Assembly: GCF_024700885.2 (NCBI RefSeq)
Contig: NZ_CP117016.1
Reading direction: 5' to 3' (one strand)
Origin: Escherichia coli
Lineage (GTDB): Bacteria > Pseudomonadota > Gammaproteobacteria > Enterobacterales > Enterobacteriaceae
DNA length: 64,000 nucleotides
Within the stretch, counting starts at the first letter, position 1. Every line of letters starts with the position of its first letter. A program made the position numbers and the translations under genes. Shown here piece by piece: positions 4,689 to 37,840 of this stretch. Under the pieces are notes generated by a model that was given only the letters and a program-made list of their open reading frames with translations, was not told where the DNA came from and did no database searches.

Positions 4689-4964
4689 GTGGCTTCTGTT
4701 TCTATCAGCTGTCCCTCCTGTTCAGCTACTGACGGGGTGGTGCGTAACGGCAAAAGCACCGCCGGACATCAGCGCTATCTCTGCTCTCACTGCCGTAAAA
4801 CATGGCAACTGCAGTTCACTTACACCGCTTCTCAACCCGGTACGCACCAGAAAATCATTGATATGGCCATGAATGGCGTTGGATGCCGGGCAACTGCCCG
4901 CATTATGGGCGTTGGCCTCAACACGATTTTACGTCACTTAAAAAACTCAGGCCGCAGTCGGTAA
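4689..4964 (+). CDS. insA: IS1 InsA (transposition repressor)
   Basis: 91-aa [40 protein letters not shown]... recognised as IS1 InsA; GTG start. Confidence 0.95.
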
Positions 4965-5386
4965 CCTCGCGCATACAGCCGGGCAGTGACGTCATCGTCT
5001 GCGCGGAAATGGACGAACAGTGGGGCTATGTCGGGGCTAAATCGCGCCAGCGCTGGCTGTTTTACGCGTATGACAGTCTCCGGAAGACGGTTGTTGCGCA
5101 CGTATTCGGTGAACGCACTATGGCGACGCTGGGGCGTCTTATGAGCCTGCTGTCACCCTTTGACGTGGTGATATGGATGACGGATGGCTGGCCGCTGTAT
5201 GAATCCCGCCTGAAGGGAAAGCTGCACGTAATCAGCAAGCGATATACGCAGCGAATTGAGCGGCATAACCTGAATCTGAGGCAGCACCTGGCACGGCTGG
5301 GACGGAAGTCGCTGTCGTTCTCAAAATCGGTGGAGCTGCATGACAAAGTCATCGGGCATTATCTGAACATAAAACACTATCAATAA
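4883..5386 (+). CDS. insB: IS1 InsB frame; the transposase InsAB' is made by a -1 frameshift at the TTAAAAAACTC motif near 4936-4946
   Basis: 167-aa ORF matching InsB; A6C slippery motif present in the insA/insB overlap. Confidence 0.9.
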
Positions 5387-6567: not shown

Positions 6568-6887
6568 GACGCCATATCATAGCAGCCAGCCTCTGGATAC
6601 CCAATCTCTTGCTTCTCGAAAAACGCGGTAATAGAGAAAGAGGTTAATTTCATTTGGCAAAGGGAAGTATCATCAGCAAAATATTCGCTGCAGAGGTATC
6701 GAATTTCCTGACTTTTTTACCCTATTTCCCATCCTGATGCGTAATAATCCTGATTTATCACATTGATTTTATCGCCACTCATATTGATACGTATCACTGC
6801 CCCTATTCAGAGTCCTGTTTCGTATCATATCTGTGTTTTTTTAACGTCATCACACTTCCTTCCTCCCCTAACGCTTATCGTCGTTTC

Positions 6888-6902
6888 TGGCGTAAATCTT
6901 GC
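6888..6902 (+). promoter_or_regulatory. candidate sigma54 (-24/-12) promoter for xdhA: TGGCGTAAATCTTGC
   Basis: GG and GC spaced as in the TGGCAC-N5-TTGC consensus; about 96 bp upstream of the xdhA start. Confidence 0.4.
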
Positions 6903-6997
6903 CTGCTTAGACTAAATCTTTGCCATAAGAACCAAATGTTCAAATCGAGGGGATTTCTATGGAAGCGCGGGAAGCAACCGCTACGGGTGAATCTTGC

Positions 6998-10660: not shown

Positions 10661-12439
10661 TTATGTGTTTAACAACTCATATTTCTTAATCTTGCGATAG
10701 AGCGTAGCAATGCCGATGCCCAGTTCATCAGCAACTTGCTTCTTGCTGTTATGACGTGAAAGCGCCTCGCGGATCATTTGCTTTTCCATCTCCTCCAGCG
10801 CCGTGCCGCCCGCATCATCGAGTGCCAGGTGCGCCTCGTTGACCTCTGTTACATCACTTTGCTCCGTTGTGCCATTATTCAGCAGATTTGGCGGCAATAG
10901 CGTGCTGTCGATAACTTCACCTGAAGGAACCACGTTAACCAGATATTCCATCAAATTGCTTAACTCGCGCAGGTTTCCGGGCCAACGATGCTTACGCAAT
11001 ATTTCGACGACATCGGGAGCAATGCCCGGATAAACCGATCCCAGACGACGGGTATGCAGATGTAAAAAGTAATGCACCAGTAGTTCAATATCTTCCTGAC
11101 GTTCACGCAGCGGTGGCAGAGTTATCGGGATAACATTAAGTCGGTAGAAGAGATCTTCGCGGAATTTACCTTCGGCAATGAACTGGGCCAAATTCTGGTT
11201 AGTTGCAGAAATGATGCGAATGTCGACTTGTATTGGGCTACTGGCACCAATCGGCAGAATTTCACGCGCCTCAATAGCGCGCAGTAATTTAGCCTGCAAC
11301 ATTAATGGCATATCACCTATTTCATCGAGAAACAGCGTGCCCGTATTCGCCGCCTGAATCAACCCTGTTTTACCGTTGGCAGAAGCGCCAGTAAATGCGC
11401 CTTTAACATAACCGAACAGTTCGCTCTCCAGAAGCTGCTCCGGAATCGCGGCACAGTTGATAGCAATAAAGGGTTTATTCCGTCTTCCGCTCAACTTATG
11501 GATTGCACGGGCGACAACTTCTTTACCCGTGCCGCTTTCACCAACCACCATAACGCTGGATGGGCTGGGTGCAATACGGCTAATGAGTCGTTTTAATTGC
11601 CGCATAACACGGCACTCGCCAACCAATTGTTCAATATGCGGTTCATCAGGTGCATTTGCTACAGAAAAACTGGTATGCGATTGGTGAAACGCCATTAAAA
11701 ATAATTGTCGGCCCTGAATGTTATGCAATTGACCAATGATTAATTCACTTTTATCGTCCCACGAAACAATATGCTGCATATGTCCATGGGTAAAATTACT
11801 CTCAAATGTTAATGGTCTGAAACGGATAGGTTTCCCAATAATATTATTTTGTACAACACCAAGTGTTTTTAAGGCAGTCTGATTAACAAACTGAATCCGA
11901 TTATCGTCATCAACAACTAATACACCCTGATCCATATTATCGATCATGGTCGCGAATATTTTACTGATGTTATCTCCTGGTCCCTGATCCTCCAGAAGTT
12001 TCGAAACAAAAATGGTGGATATATGGCGAACGTAATCAGAAAATTCGCGTAAATTATCACTAATATGCTCTTGTTGCTCGTGGGTAACGGCAATCAAACT
12101 TATCACCCCAACACAACGATCCTGTAAAATGACAGGCGTACCCAGAAATGCTTTTTCGCGGCAATTTTCTTTACTATCGCAACCTTCGCAAAGGGGATCG
12201 AAGCGAGACTGTGTCACAACTTTTTCAGTTTTCGTTTCCAGGACGTGGCGGAGCAGGCGTGAGTTGCCGCTCAACTGGCGACCAAGAAACTTCCCATACG
12301 CGCCCGTTCCGGCGACGCGACACAAGTTTTCATCAACGATCTCAACCTCAAGCTGCAAAACGCTGGCAAGCATTCTGGCAAAACGCTGAATTGTCGGTTG
12401 AATTTGCATCAATACTGACTGCGTAGTAGCAAGCTCCAT
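10661..12439 (-). CDS. ygeV: sigma54-dependent transcriptional activator (bacterial enhancer-binding protein)
   Basis: 592-aa ORF with AAA+ Walker A GESGTGKE, the sigma54-contact motif GAFTGA, and a C-terminal helix-turn-helix. Confidence 0.9.
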   Translation of the reverse strand: MELATTQSVLMQIQPTIQRFARMLASVLQLEVEIVDENLCRVAGTGAYGKFLGRQLSGNSRLLRHVLETKTEKVVTQSRFDPLCEGCDSKENCREKAFLGTPVILQDRCVGVISLIAVTHEQQEHISDNLREFSDYVRHISTIFVSKLLEDQGPGDNISKIFATMIDNMDQGVLVVDDDNRIQFVNQTALKTLGVVQNNIIGKPIRFRPLTFESNFTHGHMQHIVSWDDKSELIIGQLHNIQGRQLFLMAFHQSHTSFSVANAPDEPHIEQLVGECRVMRQLKRLISRIAPSPSSVMVVGESGTGKEVVARAIHKLSGRRNKPFIAINCAAIPEQLLESELFGYVKGAFTGASANGKTGLIQAANTGTLFLDEIGDMPLMLQAKLLRAIEAREILPIGASSPIQVDIRIISATNQNLAQFIAEGKFREDLFYRLNVIPITLPPLRERQEDIELLVHYFLHLHTRRLGSVYPGIAPDVVEILRKHRWPGNLRELSNLMEYLVNVVPSGEVIDSTLLPPNLLNNGTTEQSDVTEVNEAHLALDDAGGTALEEMEKQMIREALSRHNSKKQVADELGIGIATLYRKIKKYELLNT

Positions 12440-12749
12440 AGCTTTACCTTCCAGACTTACTTAAAAGTCGATCATTGAAGACGTTGATGGTTCACAGATC
12501 ATGATGATATTAACTCAGGCGAAATTGGCTTTGATAAAAACATAAGATTTTTATCACTTTCTAATGAAATTATGGAAGAGATATCACATTTCTATATCAA
12601 TATGAGAATTACGGCGGTGAGTTTATCAAACTGAAGAGAGAGCGCCTGTTCCTTTATCTTATTTCTGATACTTAGCAGCAAATAAATAACGCGATAAAAA
12701 AAGCCAAACGTTTTCGTATTTTACAAACAACCAGAAGCTGGCATCAATT

Positions 12750-12765
12750 TGTGATCAACCCCACA
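12750..12765. promoter_or_regulatory. CRP-like site TGTGATCAACCCCACA upstream of ygeW
   Basis: TGTGA-N6-CCACA, 9 of 10 matches to the CRP half-sites TGTGA-N6-TCACA. Confidence 0.35.
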
Positions 12766-12808
12766 CATTACCCGTCAAATTAGTCTTTTGCAGCCGCTTG
12801 GATAATTC

Positions 12809-12823
12809 TGGCATAGTTATTGT
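12809..12823 (+). promoter_or_regulatory. candidate sigma54 -24/-12 element TGGCATAGTTATTGT upstream of ygeW
   Basis: GG at -24 spacing and TTGT in place of TTGC; about 90 bp upstream of the ygeW start. Confidence 0.3.
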
Positions 12824-12915
12824 TAGTCCCAGGTATAGCTGTGAAAAGACCAATCACTTTTGGCAAGTCACAGTGAAATAAACCTCTTTGCCTGTCATTC
12901 CACTACCGGGACTTT

Positions 12916-14106
12916 ATGATGAAAACTGTTAATGAGCTGATTAAGGATATCAATTCGCTGACCTCTCACCTTCACGAGAAAGATTTTTTGTTAACGTGGG
13001 AACAGACGCCAGATGAACTGAAACAAGTACTGGACGTTGCCGCAGCATTAAAAGCACTGCGTGCTGAAAACATCTCAACCAAAGTCTTTAATAGTGGATT
13101 AGGTATTTCCGTATTCCGCGACAACTCCACCCGTACCCGTTTCTCTTATGCTTCCGCGCTTAACCTGCTCGGCCTTGCACAGCAAGATCTCGACGAAGGC
13201 AAATCACAAATCGCTCACGGCGAAACCGTGCGTGAAACCGCCAATATGATCTCCTTCTGCGCCGATGCCATCGGTATTCGTGACGATATGTATCTGGGCG
13301 CAGGCAACGCCTATATGCGTGAAGTTGGCGCTGCACTTGATGACGGTTACAAGCAGGGTGTGCTGCCGCAACGTCCGGCTTTAGTGAACCTGCAATGCGA
13401 TATTGACCACCCGACTCAGTCAATGGCTGACCTGGCATGGTTACGTGAACACTTTGGTTCACTGGAAAACCTGAAAGGTAAAAAAATCGCCATGACCTGG
13501 GCCTACTCCCCAAGCTATGGCAAACCGCTCTCTGTACCACAAGGCATCATCGGTCTGATGACTCGCTTCGGTATGGATGTCACCCTGGCCCATCCGGAAG
13601 GCTACGACCTGATCCCGGATGTCGTTGAAGTCGCTAAAAACAATGCTAAAGCCTCCGGCGGTAGCTTCCGTCAGGTCACCAGCATGGAAGAAGCCTTCAA
13701 AGACGCAGACATCGTTTATCCGAAGTCATGGGCACCTTACAAAGTGATGGAAGAGCGTACTGAATTGCTGCGTGCGAACGATCACGAAGGCTTAAAAGCA
13801 CTGGAAAAACAGTGTCTGGCACAGAACGCGCAACACAAAGACTGGCATTGTACTGAAGAGATGATGGAACTGACCCGTGATGGCGAAGCCCTGTACATGC
13901 ACTGCCTGCCAGCTGATATCAGCGGCGTATCCTGCAAAGAAGGTGAAGTGACTGAAGGCGTATTCGAAAAATACCGTATCGCGACCTACAAAGAAGCCAG
14001 CTGGAAGCCTTATATCATCGCCGCGATGATCCTGTCCCGCAAATACGCCAAACCAGGTGCACTGCTCGAGCAACTGCTGAAAGAAGCGCAAGAACGCGTG
14101 AAATAA
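12916..14106 (+). CDS. ygeW: carbamoyltransferase (ornithine/aspartate transcarbamylase superfamily)
   Basis: 396-aa ORF with the carbamoyl-phosphate-binding STRTR motif and HCLP motif. Confidence 0.85.
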   Translation: MMKTVNELIKDINSLTSHLHEKDFLLTWEQTPDELKQVLDVAAALKALRAENISTKVFNSGLGISVFRDNSTRTRFSYASALNLLGLAQQDLDEGKSQIAHGETVRETANMISFCADAIGIRDDMYLGAGNAYMREVGAALDDGYKQGVLPQRPALVNLQCDIDHPTQSMADLAWLREHFGSLENLKGKKIAMTWAYSPSYGKPLSVPQGIIGLMTRFGMDVTLAHPEGYDLIPDVVEVAKNNAKASGGSFRQVTSMEEAFKDADIVYPKSWAPYKVMEERTELLRANDHEGLKALEKQCLAQNAQHKDWHCTEEMMELTRDGEALYMHCLPADISGVSCKEGEVTEGVFEKYRIATYKEASWKPYIIAAMILSRKYAKPGALLEQLLKEAQERVK

Positions 14107-15417: not shown

Positions 15418-16629
15418 ATGGCTAAGAATATTCCATTCAAACTGATTCTTGAAAAAGCAAAAGATTACCAGGCGGACATGACTCGCTTCCTGCGCGACAT
15501 GGTTGCTATTCCCAGTGAAAGCTGCGACGAAAAACGCGTAGTACATCGTATTAAAGAAGAGATGGAAAAAGTCGGCTTCGATAAAGTTGAAATCGACCCG
15601 ATGGGCAACGTTCTCGGTTATATCGGCCACGGCCCGCGTCTGGTGGCAATGGACGCTCATATTGATACCGTCGGCATTGGCAACATCAAAAACTGGGACT
15701 TCGATCCGTACGAAGGCATGGAAACTGATGAGCTGATCGGTGGTCGCGGTACTTCCGACCAGGAAGGCGGCATGGCATCTATGGTTTATGCCGGTAAAAT
15801 CATTAAAGACCTCGGTCTGGAAGATGAATATACCCTGCTGGTTACCGGTACTGTGCAGGAAGAAGACTGCGACGGTCTGTGCTGGCAGTACATTATTGAA
15901 CAATCCGGCATTCGCCCGGAATTTGTGGTCAGTACCGAACCAACCGACTGCCAGGTATACCGTGGTCAGCGCGGTCGTATGGAAATTCGTATTGATGTTC
16001 AGGGTGTTAGCTGCCACGGTTCTGCGCCAGAACGCGGTGACAACGCCATTTTCAAAATGGGTCCGATTCTTGGCGAATTACAAGAACTCTCCCAACGTCT
16101 GGGTTATGACGAATTCCTCGGCAAAGGCACCCTCACCGTTTCTGAAATCTTCTTCACATCCCCAAGCCGTTGCGCTGTAGCAGATAGCTGCGCCGTCTCT
16201 ATTGACCGCCGTCTGACCTGGGGCGAAACCTGGGAAGGCGCGCTGGACGAAATCCGCGCCCTGCCTGCAGTACAGAAAGCTAACGCGGTTGTTTCTATGT
16301 ACAACTACGACCGTCCGTCCTGGACTGGCCTGGTTTACCCAACCGAATGCTACTTCCCGACCTGGAAAGTGGAAGAAGATCACTTCACCGTTAAAGCACT
16401 GGTGAATGCCTACGAAGGTCTGTTTGGCAAAGCGCCGGTTGTTGATAAGTGGACCTTCTCAACTAACGGCGTATCTATCATGGGCCGTCACGGCATTCCG
16501 GTGATCGGCTTTGGCCCAGGTAAAGAACCTGAAGCGCATGCACCTAACGAAAAAACCTGGAAATCTCACCTGGTGACCTGTGCCGCGATGTACGCGGCAA
16601 TCCCGTTAAGCTGGCTGGCAACCGAATAA
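15418..16629 (+). CDS. ygeY: M20-family metallopeptidase / amidohydrolase
   Basis: 403-aa ORF; position between ygeX and hyuA matches K-12 order; M20 (ArgE/DapE) family assignment is from memory, no specific motif checked. Confidence 0.85.
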
Positions 16630-19087: not shown

Positions 19088-20713
19088 TTAAGCCACTTCC
19101 AGCACTTCTTTTGTCGCTTTCACGCCCTGATGCATCAACATCATTAACGCCTCAAGTACGCCGCCGCCAATTGCCCGGGCTTTATCAGAAACGCTGGTGA
19201 AATCAGCCGTTTCACCACGAGGATCGATATCACCAATTTTAAAACCACCGACCACTGCTAGTCCGTCGTTCAACAAGCCACGCACCATCCCCGTCAACGG
19301 TGCTTTAATTTCATGCTCACCAATCCAGGCAATCACATCGCCCTCTTTCACCAGATCGCCTAATTTCACGTTGGATCGCATAATGCCTGCAGCAGGAGCA
19401 CGGATCACCCGTCGGGTGGTATGCCCCATAATATTGCTAGGAACACCGGTATTCTCCTGCGCACAACCAGAGTAAATCACCTGACCGAGCCAGTGCCCGC
19501 GATTTGTTTCAATTACCGCATGACAATCCTTCCCTGCAATAAAGCCCGGCCCAAGCGCGATTGTTACTGGTGCCATATCTGCCCGCGTCCCCAAATTCTG
19601 TTTCGCCAGAATAGCGTCCACCACGCAAAGCGGTTTCAGTTCATCAAGCAATGAACAGGCGGGATCTACCATCACAGGGATGAATCCGCGTTCGGTAAGT
19701 TTCATCGCTTCCGCAGAGCTGGTTGCCAGGCGGGCAGTGACGCCTTCGACCGTCATTTCGCCATCGAACACGGCCTGGGCAAACGCCACGGTACAACGAA
19801 TCACTGTCGGTTTTTCCACTTCCAGCATGATCACTTTAAAACCCGCATGATACAGACGTAGCGCCACACCACTGGCGATATCCCCCGCACCGCGAATCAC
19901 CACCAGCTGGTGTCCGGAAGGATGAGAAGGTTTCATCATCAGCCCACCCGGCGCGTTATTTTTCACCTGTAATATTTCTGCCAGCACGCTGATGGCGATC
20001 TCCTGCGGCGTTTCCGCACCTATGTTGTAACCAACGGGCGCATGTAAACGGGCAATATGTTCTTCAGCCACGCCTTTCTCACGCAATTGACGCAGGAAAA
20101 GCTGAACCTTGCGGCGACTTGCCAGCAACCCCAGCCATGCAATGGGCTGTTCAATGAGTTTGTCGAGGGCTTCACGATCCTGATTATTCGTGGCAATCAG
20201 GACAAAATTATCAGGGCGAATATCCAGTGCTTCCACTGCCGCACCAAACGACTCAGCATGGAGAAGCGTGGTTGATGGTGGGAATAATTCAGGATTGAGG
20301 CTTTCGCGATAAATATCGGCAACGGCAATATCAAATCCTAATAGCGCCGCACTCTGGGCTATCGCCCGGTTGACATGCCCCGCGCCAATCAACACCAGAC
20401 GTGGACGCATACCATGGACGCTGATAAATACGGACATTGCACCTCCACAATCTGACCCGACAGCATCCGCACCGTTACGAGCCATACGTCCATGGAATAA
20501 TCGCGGCTTACGTTCCTGCAATGCCTGAAGCGACTCTTCAATCACCTTCCGCTCAACCATTCCGCCACCAATTGTACCGACGATAGAGCCATCGGCGCGC
20601 ACTAACATTTGTGCAGAATGGCGGGGAGTCGAGCCTCGGCTATCAACAATTTGCGCCATCGCAAACGGACAATTTTGCTCTTCGAGTTTTGCAGCCTCTG
20701 TGAAAATATTCAT
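19088..20713 (-). CDS. yqeB: XdhC/CoxI-family accessory protein (marker of selenium-dependent molybdenum hydroxylase loci)
   Basis: 541-aa ORF; synteny with yqeC and mocA. Confidence 0.8.
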   Translation of the reverse strand: MNIFTEAAKLEEQNCPFAMAQIVDSRGSTPRHSAQMLVRADGSIVGTIGGGMVERKVIEESLQALQERKPRLFHGRMARNGADAVGSDCGGAMSVFISVHGMRPRLVLIGAGHVNRAIAQSAALLGFDIAVADIYRESLNPELFPPSTTLLHAESFGAAVEALDIRPDNFVLIATNNQDREALDKLIEQPIAWLGLLASRRKVQLFLRQLREKGVAEEHIARLHAPVGYNIGAETPQEIAISVLAEILQVKNNAPGGLMMKPSHPSGHQLVVIRGAGDIASGVALRLYHAGFKVIMLEVEKPTVIRCTVAFAQAVFDGEMTVEGVTARLATSSAEAMKLTERGFIPVMVDPACSLLDELKPLCVVDAILAKQNLGTRADMAPVTIALGPGFIAGKDCHAVIETNRGHWLGQVIYSGCAQENTGVPSNIMGHTTRRVIRAPAAGIMRSNVKLGDLVKEGDVIAWIGEHEIKAPLTGMVRGLLNDGLAVVGGFKIGDIDPRGETADFTSVSDKARAIGGGVLEALMMLMHQGVKATKEVLEVA

Positions 20714-20760
20714 ACCAACCTCAATGGATATCCTTTCAGTAACCCGGAATACCCGGGCCG

Positions 20761-21531
20761 CTAATTCACAAATCTGCGCGCGATTGCAGGATGTTCTTGT
20801 ATATCGCCCAGCCAGATTGCCTCTACGTCGTGTTGTTGCAGCGGTTGAAGGAGCTCGCTTTGTGCAATCGCATTCTCACATTGAGAAAAACGGTTAATGA
20901 ACCAGACTCGCCGACAACCTTGCGGTACGTTTTTAAATGCGCCCTGAGGGTGGCGAACCAGCGCAACGAGATCGCTCAGTTGCAAGGTTGCATCAGGTGT
21001 TAACCCGGTAATATCAGCAAACTGCGACCAGCGATGGACATTTTCTGTGCTCACTTTCGCGCCCAAAATATGTCCTCCCATCACAGCAATCACGCAGCAA
21101 CTGCTTTTGGGTATGCAAGGTTCGTGCTCATCAGGCGCTTTTAACGTCATTCCACGCGAGCCATCTGCCTCAATGAGAATTACGTCACACTCTGGTCGTT
21201 GCACCAGTGCATCAATCGCTTCTGGCGTAAATCCCTGCACTTTTCCCTGGTTCGCTTTCCAGCTGTGAAAACAAAATGAAATGGGGGATGTAAGAGACGC
21301 ATGAGGAAGCATGGCGGGATCACGACAGAAAACCACGGGCCAGTGAGACGTTGGCATAAACATATGTGTCGTCGTAGTGATTAACACACGCCTGCCGCTA
21401 GCCTGGAGCAGTTCTGCCAGCCAAAAAAGCAAGCTGGTTTTCCCCCCAGCCCCAACAACAGAAATCACAGTGGGACGTTTCTGCGCGCCTAAATCAATGA
21501 ATAATGCCGATGGGTCAACTATACTTTTCAC
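20761..21531 (-). CDS. yqeC: selenium-dependent molybdenum hydroxylase system protein (YqeC family)
   Basis: 256-aa ORF with P-loop-like VVGAGGKTS; synteny. Confidence 0.75.
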   Translation of the reverse strand: MKSIVDPSALFIDLGAQKRPTVISVVGAGGKTSLLFWLAELLQASGRRVLITTTTHMFMPTSHWPVVFCRDPAMLPHASLTSPISFCFHSWKANQGKVQGFTPEAIDALVQRPECDVILIEADGSRGMTLKAPDEHEPCIPKSSCCVIAVMGGHILGAKVSTENVHRWSQFADITGLTPDATLQLSDLVALVRHPQGAFKNVPQGCRRVWFINRFSQCENAIAQSELLQPLQQHDVEAIWLGDIQEHPAIARRFVN

Positions 21532-22212: not shown

Positions 22213-22366
22213 AAAATGTAGTTAAACGATTGCGTTCAAATATTTAATCCCTCCAGCACTCTTTATCATAATGATAAGGAATCACTGATTTTGAGAAAAG
22301 AGAAAAAGTGATAAATGGGCTGGCAATAATAATTTTCAGGAGTGATTTTAATTCTCATTTGGCACC

Positions 22367-22382
22367 TGTGAGTTCATTCACA
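22367..22382. promoter_or_regulatory. CRP binding site TGTGAGTTCATTCACA upstream of ygfK
   Basis: Perfect match to both CRP consensus half-sites TGTGA-N6-TCACA. Confidence 0.55.
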
Positions 22383-22436: not shown

Positions 22437-22452
22437 TGGCAAGAGTGGTGCG
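22437..22452 (+). promoter_or_regulatory. candidate sigma54 -24/-12 element TGGCAAGAGTGGTGCG upstream of ygfK
   Basis: GG-N10-GC spacing correct; about 80 bp upstream of the ygfK start. Confidence 0.3.
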
Positions 22453-22533
22453 ATTGTTGCTCTATCCCCCTAAACCACCGGATTTCTCAACACCGGTCAC
22501 TCAATGATATCTGTATAAGCTAAGGAGAGGGTT

Positions 22534-32239: not shown

Positions 32240-33559
32240 ATGATGTCAGGAGAACACACGTTAAAAGCGGTACGAGGCAGTTTTATTGATGTCACCCGTA
32301 CAGTCGATAACCCAGAGGAGATTGCCTCTGCGCTGCGGTTTATTGAGGATGGTTTATTACTCATTAAACAGGGAAAAGTGGAATGGTTTGGCGAATGGGA
32401 AGACGGAAAGCATCAAATTCCTGACACTATTCGCGTGCGCGACTATCGCGGCAAACTGATAGTACCGGGCTTTGTCGATACACATATCCATTATCCGCAA
32501 AGTGAAATGGTGGGGGCCTATGGTGAACAATTGCTGGAGTGGTTGAATAAACACACCTTCCCTACTGAACGTCGTTATGAGGATTTAGAGTACGCCCGCG
32601 AAATGTCGGCGTTCTTCATCAAGCAGCTTTTACGTAACGGAACCACCACGGCTCTGGTGTTTGGCACTGTTCATCCGCAATCCGTTGATGCGCTGTTTGA
32701 AGCCGCCAGCCATATCAATATGCGTATGATTGCCGGTAAGGTGATGATGGACCGCAACGCACCGGATTATCTGCTCGACACTGCCGAAAGCAGCTATCAC
32801 CAAAGCAAAGAGCTGATCGAACGCTGGCACAAAAATGGTCGTCTGTTGTATGCGATTACGCCACGCTTCGCCCCTACCTCATCTCCTGAACAGATGGCGA
32901 TGGCGAAACGCCTGAAAGAAGAATATCCGGATACGTGGGTACATACCCATCTCTGTGAAAACAAAGATGAAATTGCCTGGGTGAAAGAACTTTATCCTGA
33001 CCATGATGGCTATCTGGATGTTTACCATCAGTACGGCCTGACCGGTAAAAACTGTGTCTTTGCTCACTGCGTCCATCTCGAAGAAAAAGAGTGGGATCGT
33101 CTCAGCGAAACCAAATCCAGCATTGCTTTCTGTCCGACCTCCAACCTTTACCTCGGCAGCGGCTTATTCAACTTGAAAAAAGCATGGCAGAAGAAAGTTA
33201 AAGTGGGCATGGGAACGGATATCGGTGCCGGAACAACTTTCAACATGCTGCAAACGCTGAACGAAGCCTACAAAGTATTGCAATTACAAGGCTATCGCCT
33301 CTCGGCATATGAAGCGTTTTACCTGGCCACGCTCGGCGGAGCGAAATCTCTGGGCCTTGACGATTTAATTGGCAACTTTTTACCTGGCAAAGAGGCTGAT
33401 TTCGTGGTGATGGAACCCACCGCCACTCCGCTACAGCAGCTGCGCTATGACAACTCTGTTTCTTTAGTCGACAAATTGTTCGTGATGATGACGTTGGGCG
33501 ATGACCGTTCGATCTACCGCACCTACGTTGATGGTCGTCTGGTGTACGAACGCAACTAA
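32240..33559 (+). CDS. guaD: guanine deaminase
   Basis: 439 aa from the ATG at 32240 (MMSGEHTLKAV...); amidohydrolase HIHYPQ motif; AAGGAG Shine-Dalgarno. Confidence 0.85.
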   Translation: MMSGEHTLKAVRGSFIDVTRTVDNPEEIASALRFIEDGLLLIKQGKVEWFGEWEDGKHQIPDTIRVRDYRGKLIVPGFVDTHIHYPQSEMVGAYGEQLLEWLNKHTFPTERRYEDLEYAREMSAFFIKQLLRNGTTTALVFGTVHPQSVDALFEAASHINMRMIAGKVMMDRNAPDYLLDTAESSYHQSKELIERWHKNGRLLYAITPRFAPTSSPEQMAMAKRLKEEYPDTWVHTHLCENKDEIAWVKELYPDHDGYLDVYHQYGLTGKNCVFAHCVHLEEKEWDRLSETKSSIAFCPTSNLYLGSGLFNLKKAWQKKVKVGMGTDIGAGTTFNMLQTLNEAYKVLQLQGYRLSAYEAFYLATLGGAKSLGLDDLIGNFLPGKEADFVVMEPTATPLQQLRYDNSVSLVDKLFVMMTLGDDRSIYRTYVDGRLVYERN

Positions 33560-37405: not shown

Positions 37406-37756
37406 TTGCATCCCTTTCATTTAATGAGTTATGTCTTCTCAAATTTCGCGATGCAATAAATGGGCATATATTAGGTAGCATGGCCGATTTAATTATAATT
37501 TTGCGACTGAGTTCAAATTATTGCCCCTCAATCTGTGCCGCTTTCATTATTTCAACATTGCCGACCAAAAGAGATCTAACCAGATAAAAACGATTAAATA
37601 CGAGAGTGCGACATGCCAGAATGATTAATGAAATATCAATATGAGAAAATTACAGATAATTCCATTGTCAGGTTCTCTTCTCATTTTCGTGGTTTAACCA
37701 CGATTATGTGATTGCCTCCGCAATTCCTGTCTCTAACTCCCCTTCCTCGCAAAAAC

Positions 37757-37771
37757 TGGCACTCCACGAGC
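37757..37771 (+). promoter_or_regulatory. candidate sigma54 -24/-12 element TGGCACTCCACGAGC upstream of uacT
   Basis: Perfect TGGCAC at -24 and GC at the -12 position; about 70 bp upstream of the uacT start. Confidence 0.35.
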
Positions 37772-37840
37772 ATGTGTTTAGACAGTTTCATTAACGTAAA
37801 CGGTTGCTTTTTACTCTGGCGAGCGAAAGGAGAAACACTG

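Follow-up and report, generated by a model that had tools for sequence, protein, structure and literature searches.

Background

The closest natural analogue of the ygeV/ygeW region is the prpR-prpBCDE region of E. coli and Salmonella, in which the gene of an enhancer-binding protein likewise lies divergent from its sigma-54 catabolic operon, and in which intergenic CRP is reportedly needed for both promoters, so that a sigma-54 operon comes under catabolite repression. The prpBCDE operon, the only naturally positive precedent, also requires IHF, whereas the ygeW region is devoid of an IHF consensus. The two regions differ further in that the K-12 prpR-prpB spacer contains no CRP core with at least 7/10 matches, while the ygeW region has a 9/10 site; the prpR-prpB spacer therefore offers no usable site for a helical-face rule.

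At glnAp2, dctA and Pu, as at ygeW, CRP-cAMP is located upstream of the sigma-54 closed complex, between enhancer and promoter, and both DNA bending and an AR1 contact have been invoked. There the effects are inhibitory, in contrast to the positive effect on ygeW in vivo. The glnAp2 site is weak, polymerase-recruited, centred at -51.5 and exposed on the polymerase face, from which CRP represses by bending the enhancer away, whereas the ygeW site is strong, autonomous, located at about -77.5 and on the opposite face. In the synthetic glnAp2 promoters of Huo et al. 2006, a consensus CRP site is said to have been moved between enhancer and promoter, with activity going up or down according to the helical face, and the stimulatory bends reportedly fell on the face opposite the polymerase. 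Those are engineered NtrC constructs, while the layout found in the YgeV regulon is natural and recurs within one regulon, and that of ygeW is conserved across Enterobacterales. Finally, IHF-assisted sigma-54 promoters such as nifH and Pu resemble ygeW in the succession of a distal enhancer, a site for a bending protein and a -24/-12 promoter, but they use IHF, whereas at ygeW a signal-responsive regulator, CRP, would do the bending. A review of enhancer-binding proteins in Salmonella contains nothing on CRP. The original prediction for this locus called the pairing of a CRP site with a sigma-54-type element unusual, which is a fair description, although precedents exist in glnAp2, dctA and Pu (CRP-repressed) and in prpBCDE (CRP-activated).

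The ygeV/ygeW locus

The window analysed here is a 64,000-nucleotide stretch of E. coli DNA, whose bases 12300-13200 match strain SMS-3-5 at 100% identity and most other complete genomes at 95-99%. [quoted passage not shown] The latter is gene 1 of the cluster ygeW-dpaL(ygeX)-ygeY-hyuA-arcC, which has been assigned, with xdhABC, ygfK-ssnA-ygfM-xdhD and ygfT, to the anaerobic degradation of purines and uric acid. A "YgeV iModulon" consisting of purine/urate genes, ygeWXY included, has been described, and ygfT expression is decreased in a ygeV mutant. According to Pfam, YgeV comprises PAS, Sigma54_activat (E=7.6e-71), AAA lid and HTH_8 domains. Elsewhere in the window, an IS1A-family element is present at about 4689-5386, between yqeH and a tRNA-Gly gene (SMS-3-5 RefSeq annotation).

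In the window, the promoter region (12735-12840) is present as a minority allele with TGGCAT-AGTTA in the sigma-54 element, and a version at least 99% identical to it is found in only 310 of the 4127 matching E. coli genomes. K-12 and the majority of genomes have TGGCAC-ACTTA, from which the window allele differs at two non-critical bases. The conservation of the 5'-UTR block in front of ygeW across Enterobacterales (20-region alignment, see below) exceeds what a ribosome-binding site alone would need; nevertheless, a search of the intergenic region and the 5' UTR against Rfam returned just two hits (E=0.61), far under the gathering scores, and hence no match to a structured RNA family. A terminator-like hairpin on the minus strand (12742-12730) was rejected, as it has a stem of 5 bp and 0.4 such sites are expected by chance.

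Table 1. Coordinates (in the window) of genes, regulatory elements and repeats at ygeW and at related promoters
Feature	Sequence	Position	Strand	Basis and remarks
ygeV (isrR)		10661..12439	minus	ORF and RefSeq annotation; bacterial enhancer-binding protein, presumed activator of the ygeW promoter
ygeW (knotted carbamoyltransferase)		12916..14106	plus	ORF and RefSeq annotation; Pfam OTCace_N, OTCace
Candidate ygeV sigma-70 -10 element	TATCAT	12504..12509	minus	near-invariant A..ATA columns in the 20-region alignment; putative
Perfect inverted repeat	TGATAAAAA-N7-TTTTTATCA	12532..12556	no strand	100% complementary; between ygeV start and enhancer cluster
Upstream-activating cluster	TGGAAGAGATATCACA (12573-12588), TATCAATATGAGA (12595-12607), TTTATCAAACTG (12622-12633)	12573..12633	no strand	presumed YgeV sites
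CRP-cAMP site, ygeW	TGTGATCAACCCCACA	12750..12765	no strand	9/10 core positions; centre 12757.5; 51.5 bp to the first T of TGGCA (-24 element); about -77.5 vs predicted sigma-54 start
Sigma-54 element, ygeW	CTGGCATAGTTATTGTT	12808..12824	plus	GG at -25/-24; non-canonical -12, TTGT for TTGC
Predicted ygeW transcription start		12835	plus	motif centre + 19; 81-nt 5' UTR
Conserved 5'-UTR block	GCCTGTCATTCCACTACCGGGA; GCCnGTCATTCACTACCAGGA	12890..12911	plus	directly 5' of ygeW start codon; ends in ribosome-binding site
CRP-like site, xdhA	TTTTAACGTCATCACA	6839-6854		8/10; 41.5 bp to -24 element; -67.5 vs predicted start
Sigma-54 element, xdhA		6887-6903		
CRP-like site, ygfK	TGTGAGTTCATTCACA	22367-22382		10/10; 71.5 bp to -24 element; -97.5 vs predicted start
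Sigma-54 element, ygfK		22445-22461		
CRP-like site, ygfT	TGCGACTGAGTTCAAA	37502-37517	minus	8/10; 42.5 bp to -24 element; -68.5 vs predicted start
Sigma-54 element, ygfT		37452-37468	minus	
CRP-like site, uacT	TGTGATTGCCTCCGCA	37707-37722		8/10; 42.5 bp to -24 element; -68.5 vs predicted start
Sigma-54 element, uacT	TGGCACTCCACGAGCA	37757-37772		
TATCAWWWTGAKA-type copy, xdhA		6777-6789		
TATCAWWWTGAKA-type copy, ygeW		12595-12607		
TATCAWWWTGAKA-type copy, ygfK		22264-22276		
TATCAWWWTGAKA-type copy, ygfT/uacT		37634-37646		

CRP site and sigma-54 element of ygeW

Both elements proposed upstream of ygeW are present: the CRP-like site was recovered base for base, and the sigma-54-like element TGGCATAGTTATTGT was found exactly at 12809-12823, separated from it by 43 bp (about 45 bp had been given originally). 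The CRP site conforms to TGTGA-N6-TCACA with both the G and C contact bases present; sequences with at most one mismatch to this consensus occur six times in the window compared to 1.92 expected, a number reached in one of 100 shuffles. In the sigma-54 element, TGGCAT-N5-TTGT, the GG is correctly positioned with respect to the -12 dinucleotide (in the consensus TGGCAC-N5-TTGC, GG and GC are 10 bp apart), and the degenerate pattern TGGCAY-N5-TTGY occurs once in the window compared to 1.14 expected, i.e. not above chance alone. Sequence by itself lends modest support to the CRP site and none to the sigma-54 element, so that other evidence is needed. Another sigma-54-like TGGCAT (12739-12744), which overlaps the CRP site, was rejected: its -12 spacing is wrong, conservation does not extend to Citrobacter or the other genera, and E. 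coli MLI109 has a broken copy.

Such evidence is available for K-12. A sigma-54 ChIP-seq site, OS30, whose motif is CTGGCACACTTATTGTT, was assigned to ygeW, with a start predicted to lie 80 bp upstream of the gene (Bonocora 2015), and we found that this motif is the K-12 allele of the sigma-54 element in the window. Occupancy at OS30 was weak (fold-above-threshold 3, PSSM score 9.8; Bonocora 2015), and a gSELEX peak of the sigma-54 (RpoN) holoenzyme falls in the ygeV/ygeW spacer. Our placement of the transcription start follows the rule in Table 1 of Bonocora 2015, which reproduces the published 80, 84, 62 and 36 bp for ygeW, xdhA, ygfK and ygfT, respectively; in K-12 the predicted ygeW start corresponds to about 3006182 of NC_000913.3. 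With regard to CRP, gSELEX recovered ygeV<>ygeW, ygfK and ygfT<>ygfU (Shimada 2011), and promoter fragments of ygeW, ygeV and xdhA were shifted by CRP-cAMP in gels (PMC6390033). The ygeW site predicted at -168 to -146 in the latter study, ATTTGTGATCAACC(C)ACACAT (Table S2), is the TGTGATCAACCCCACA site, and its predicted xdhA site is the xdhA CRP-like site of our Table 1. The cyaA crp mutant/wild-type mRNA ratios are approximately 0.20 for ygeW and 0.12 for ygeV; in the chemostat ygeW mRNA is very low (about 0.4-3 expression units) and ygeV far more abundant (PMC6390033). Urate degradation is repressed by glucose, and constitutive promoters put in place of the "native Crp-binding site" between ygeV and ygeW relieved this repression (PMC12507026).

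Sigma-54 binding, CRP binding, the CRP/cAMP dependence of ygeV and ygeW mRNA and the glucose repression are therefore already shown in the literature, and the assignment of the motif pair to ygeW, supported here, had been demonstrated experimentally for K-12 by ChIP-seq, gSELEX and gel shift. The ygeW CRP and sigma-54 elements are real, were correctly interpreted and are already known. New here are the comparative analysis, the fixed spacing, the recurrence at sister promoters and the absence of an IHF consensus.

Other published CRP targets are also represented in the window. The sequence AGTGATTTTTATCACA (1972-1987) upstream of yqeF corresponds to the published yqeF CRP site CTTTGTGATAAAAAATCACTTTT (PMC6390033 Table S2), and near-consensus CRP cores occur at the start of yqeB (20699-20714) and inside yqeC (21174-21189), two genes that the PMC6390033 supplement, with reference to Zheng 2004, marks as regulated by CRP. 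The ygeV CRP site AAAGGGGCAGGCTATCTCTCTT given in PMC6390033 was discarded as a poor match, with several differences from the window allele AAAGGAACAGGCGCTCTCTCTT.

Conservation of the promoter architecture across genera

A scan with YgeW showed ygeV and ygeW as a divergent pair in about 30 genomes of Gammaproteobacteria, and the intergenic regions of 20 Enterobacterales were aligned. Mean column identity in this alignment is 45%, and conservation shrinks to a few islands, with TGGCA, TTATTG(T) and CRP contact bases among the invariant columns. Within the CRP site, G12751, G12753 and A12765 are invariant and T12752, A12754, C12762 and C12764 nearly so, while the N6 spacer varies freely both across genera and within E. 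coli; among E. coli alleles, substitutions are confined to two spacers, N6 of the CRP site and N5 of the sigma-54 element. From Escherichia to Morganella (about 20 genera), the CRP centre is spaced 51.5 or 52.5 bp from the first T of TGGCA; in Serratia oryzae, Cedecea sulfonylureivorans and Erwinia mallotivora the spacing is 41.5 bp, i.e. one helical turn less. It is this conservation (invariant columns, fixed spacing, substitutions restricted to spacers) that raises both motifs above chance.

The -12 element (12820-12824) reads TTGT, or TTGA/TTGG in Serratia and Photobacterium, and never TTGC in any orthologue examined. This deviation of ygeW from the consensus is conserved in its own right; TTGT is also found in other mapped sigma-54 sites, e.g. 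that of pspG (Bonocora 2015).

The strongest conserved island, with the densest run of invariant columns in the alignment, is the cluster at 12573-12633, located about 175-236 bp upstream of the -24 element (approximately -200 to -260 relative to the start predicted for ygeW). Most genera have 155.5-158.5 bp between the enhancer core and the CRP centre, and the others about one turn more or less, with unconserved sequence in between. In Photobacterium, which retains both the enhancer and the sigma-54 element, no CRP-like site is present; CRP is thus not intrinsic to the system. No match to the IHF consensus WATCAANNNNTTR was found between enhancer and promoter in 32 intergenic regions, which sets ygeW apart from IHF-assisted sigma-54 promoters, although the scan was crude and weak sites could escape it.

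In most genera, a candidate -10 element of ygeV, TATCAT, stays at the same place close to the ygeV start, with a constant 77 bp to the 12573-12588 element. That element, TGGAAGAGATATCACA, itself matches the CRP core at 8/10 positions and has an invariant TCACA; it may represent either an additional CRP site, at about -83.5 with respect to ygeV, or a part of the YgeV enhancer. The inverted repeat at 12532-12556 shares TGATA/TATCA half-sites with the enhancer cluster, and of its two arms only the left one, TTGATAAAGAT, is also conserved in more distant relatives.

Recurrence of the arrangement within the YgeV regulon

YgeV has the Sigma54_activat and HTH_8 domains of an enhancer-binding protein, and the conserved cluster of repeats upstream of ygeW presumably contains its sites. 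Within the window, one of these repeats, TATCAWWWTGAKA, is restricted to three places: upstream of ygeW, upstream of ygfK, where the copy is palindromic, and between ygfT and uacT (four matches at three sites compared to 0.02 expected). A search with the 14-mer TATCAATATGAGAA added a copy upstream of xdhA, on the minus strand and with two mismatches. This recurrence at promoters of the regulon suggests that the repeat is likely the binding site of YgeV (IsrR), and likely its enhancer; no description of it as a YgeV site was found in the literature examined. Weaker copies of the TATCAWWWTGAKA type are found within ygeY (15654-15667) and at 32713-32726.

Five promoters in the window, those of xdhA, ygeW, ygfK, ygfT and uacT, have a CRP-like site flanked by a TATCAWWWTGAKA-type enhancer on one side and a sigma-54 element on the other (Table 1). 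The uacT sigma-54 element is not among the intergenic ChIP-seq entries in the part of the sigma-54 data set covered here. The helical phases of the CRP sites cluster (Monte Carlo p=0.019, assuming 10.5 bp per turn), in a statistic that comprises five promoters, three of them with CRP matches of only 8/10 picked as the best per interval. All five sites are roughly half-integer turns (remainders 0.38-0.71) away from the position -50.5/-51.5 from which CRP represses glnAp2. They roughly share one helical face, opposite to the one that is repressing at glnAp2, and lie within roughly 2 bp of the face opposite the polymerase.

Proposed mechanism and alternative explanations

Two pieces of background bear on the position of the CRP site: about -77.5 is where IHF is located at many sigma-54 promoters, and the activator has to reach the sigma-54 closed complex from the unbound face. 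We propose that CRP-cAMP at about -77.5 probably serves as a direct, bend-providing co-activator of YgeV/sigma-54 transcription at ygeW, its direct and architectural action being suggested by the conserved layout. According to this model, the sigma-54 holoenzyme binds CTGGCAY-N5-TTGTT (12808-12824) as a closed complex, and transcription would start at about 12835 only after remodelling by YgeV, acting from the distal TATCA/TGATA repeats that are its presumed binding sites. CRP-cAMP would supply the bend given elsewhere by IHF. With such a bend inside the YgeV/sigma-54 loop, the operon would need both high cAMP and the YgeV signal, and would fire only when glucose is absent and that signal is present.

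The extension of this model to the whole YgeV/sigma-54 regulon (xdhA, ygeW, ygfK, ygfT, uacT), with CRP-cAMP as a built-in bending co-activator that replaces IHF at -67.5/-68.5, -77.5 and -97.5, near the face accessible to the activator, is put forward more tentatively, as an attractive possibility that we would not yet bet on. What these comparisons suggest, a conserved placement of CRP in helical phase and in an IHF-like position throughout the regulon, may be new.

Alternatively, the CRP site could activate a sigma-70 promoter of ygeV, and ygeW would then simply follow the level of YgeV, with no direct role of CRP at the sigma-54 promoter. The mRNA of ygeV, by far the more abundant, does depend on CRP more strongly (ratio 0.12, 8-fold) than that of ygeW (0.20), a single CRP site that serves divergent promoters is common and has been described for prpR-prpBCDE, and the E. 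coli CRP site is directly adjoined by a minus-strand sigma-70-like promoter (TTGATG, 18 bp, TAAAAT at 12747-12718). However, this promoter would place CRP at about -46.5, an unproductive position; it is a 9/12 match, of which 1.8 are expected by chance in the region, and it is unconserved. Across 18 genera we found no minus-strand -10-like hexamer at a fixed offset from the CRP site, which points to the sigma-54 promoter as the site's conserved partner. The best conserved -10 candidate of ygeV (TATCAT, 12509 to 12504) is about 250 bp away from the CRP centre, too distant for CRP to act on it from there. A purely indirect effect also leaves aside that the distance between the CRP site and the sigma-54 element is constant to within 1 bp, and that xdhA and ygfK, neither of which has a regulator gene divergent from it, show the same arrangement. 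We therefore regard indirect control as the sole explanation as unlikely, while noting that direct action at ygeW and indirect action via ygeV are not mutually exclusive and can coexist.

A second alternative is a CRP-activated sigma-70 promoter overlapping the sigma-54 element, with either GATAAT (12801-12806) or TATTGT (12818-12823) as the -10 hexamer; the former had been offered in the original prediction. GATAAT is indeed present on the plus strand as described and matches the -10 consensus at 5/6 positions. It would, however, place CRP at about -55.5, away from the class I and class II positions (near -41.5, -61.5, -72.5 or a further turn upstream), it has no -35 element, a promoter scan is silent at that spot, and in the 20-region alignment it is retained only in E. 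coli and Citrobacter, in contrast to the invariant sigma-54 element; this part of the prediction is unsupported. TATTGT would bring CRP to a class I position at about -72.5. It belongs to the invariant TTATTGT, and 14 of 18 genera score for a -10-like hexamer at this offset. A sigma-70 promoter would also be in line with the low basal CRP-dependent ygeW signal under aerobic conditions, when YgeV may be inactive. Nevertheless, TATTGT sits within the -12 element, and membership of the sigma-54 site is the better explanation for it: like GATAAT it has neither a -35 nor an extended -10 element and is not reported by the promoter scan, sigma-54, and not sigma-70, accounts for the invariant presence of TGGCA exactly 5 nt in front of TTG, and the ygeW site is occupied by sigma-54 in vivo (OS30). 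We consider a sigma-70 promoter at this place quite improbable.

Least credible, to a degree that makes it barely worth entertaining, is the idea that CRP poises or mis-orients the closed complex and so acts negatively (as an anti-activator) at ygeW, in the manner of glnAp2, dctA and Pu; every CRP/sigma-54 case whose mechanism has been studied is inhibitory, via contact of AR1 with the alpha C-terminal domain and bending, but published data show that ygeW mRNA drops, and does not rise, without CRP-cAMP and that the urate pathway is repressed by glucose, and the CRP site, at about -77.5, is some 2.5 helical turns from the repressing position -50.5/-51.5, on the other face.

Significance

The operon headed by ygeW and its sister operons carry out anaerobic degradation of uric acid in gut bacteria, a process linked to host urate levels and gout. 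If CRP-cAMP acts as the direct, bend-providing co-activator proposed above, urate degradation would be off in the presence of sugars because glucose repression enters via a conserved CRP site within the sigma-54 enhancer loop. The urate pathway of E. coli Nissle has already been re-engineered by replacing the ygeV/ygeW control region, and knowledge of the CRP site shows engineers which bases to alter. The regulon with its five promoters is a natural test bed for a global sigma-70-type activator wired into sigma-54 promoters, a situation so far studied mechanistically only for repression. If true, regulon-wide bending by CRP would be the natural counterpart of the synthetic glnAp2 bend constructs, and would represent the first mechanistic case of a positive, face-of-helix-specific action of CRP at sigma-54 promoters.
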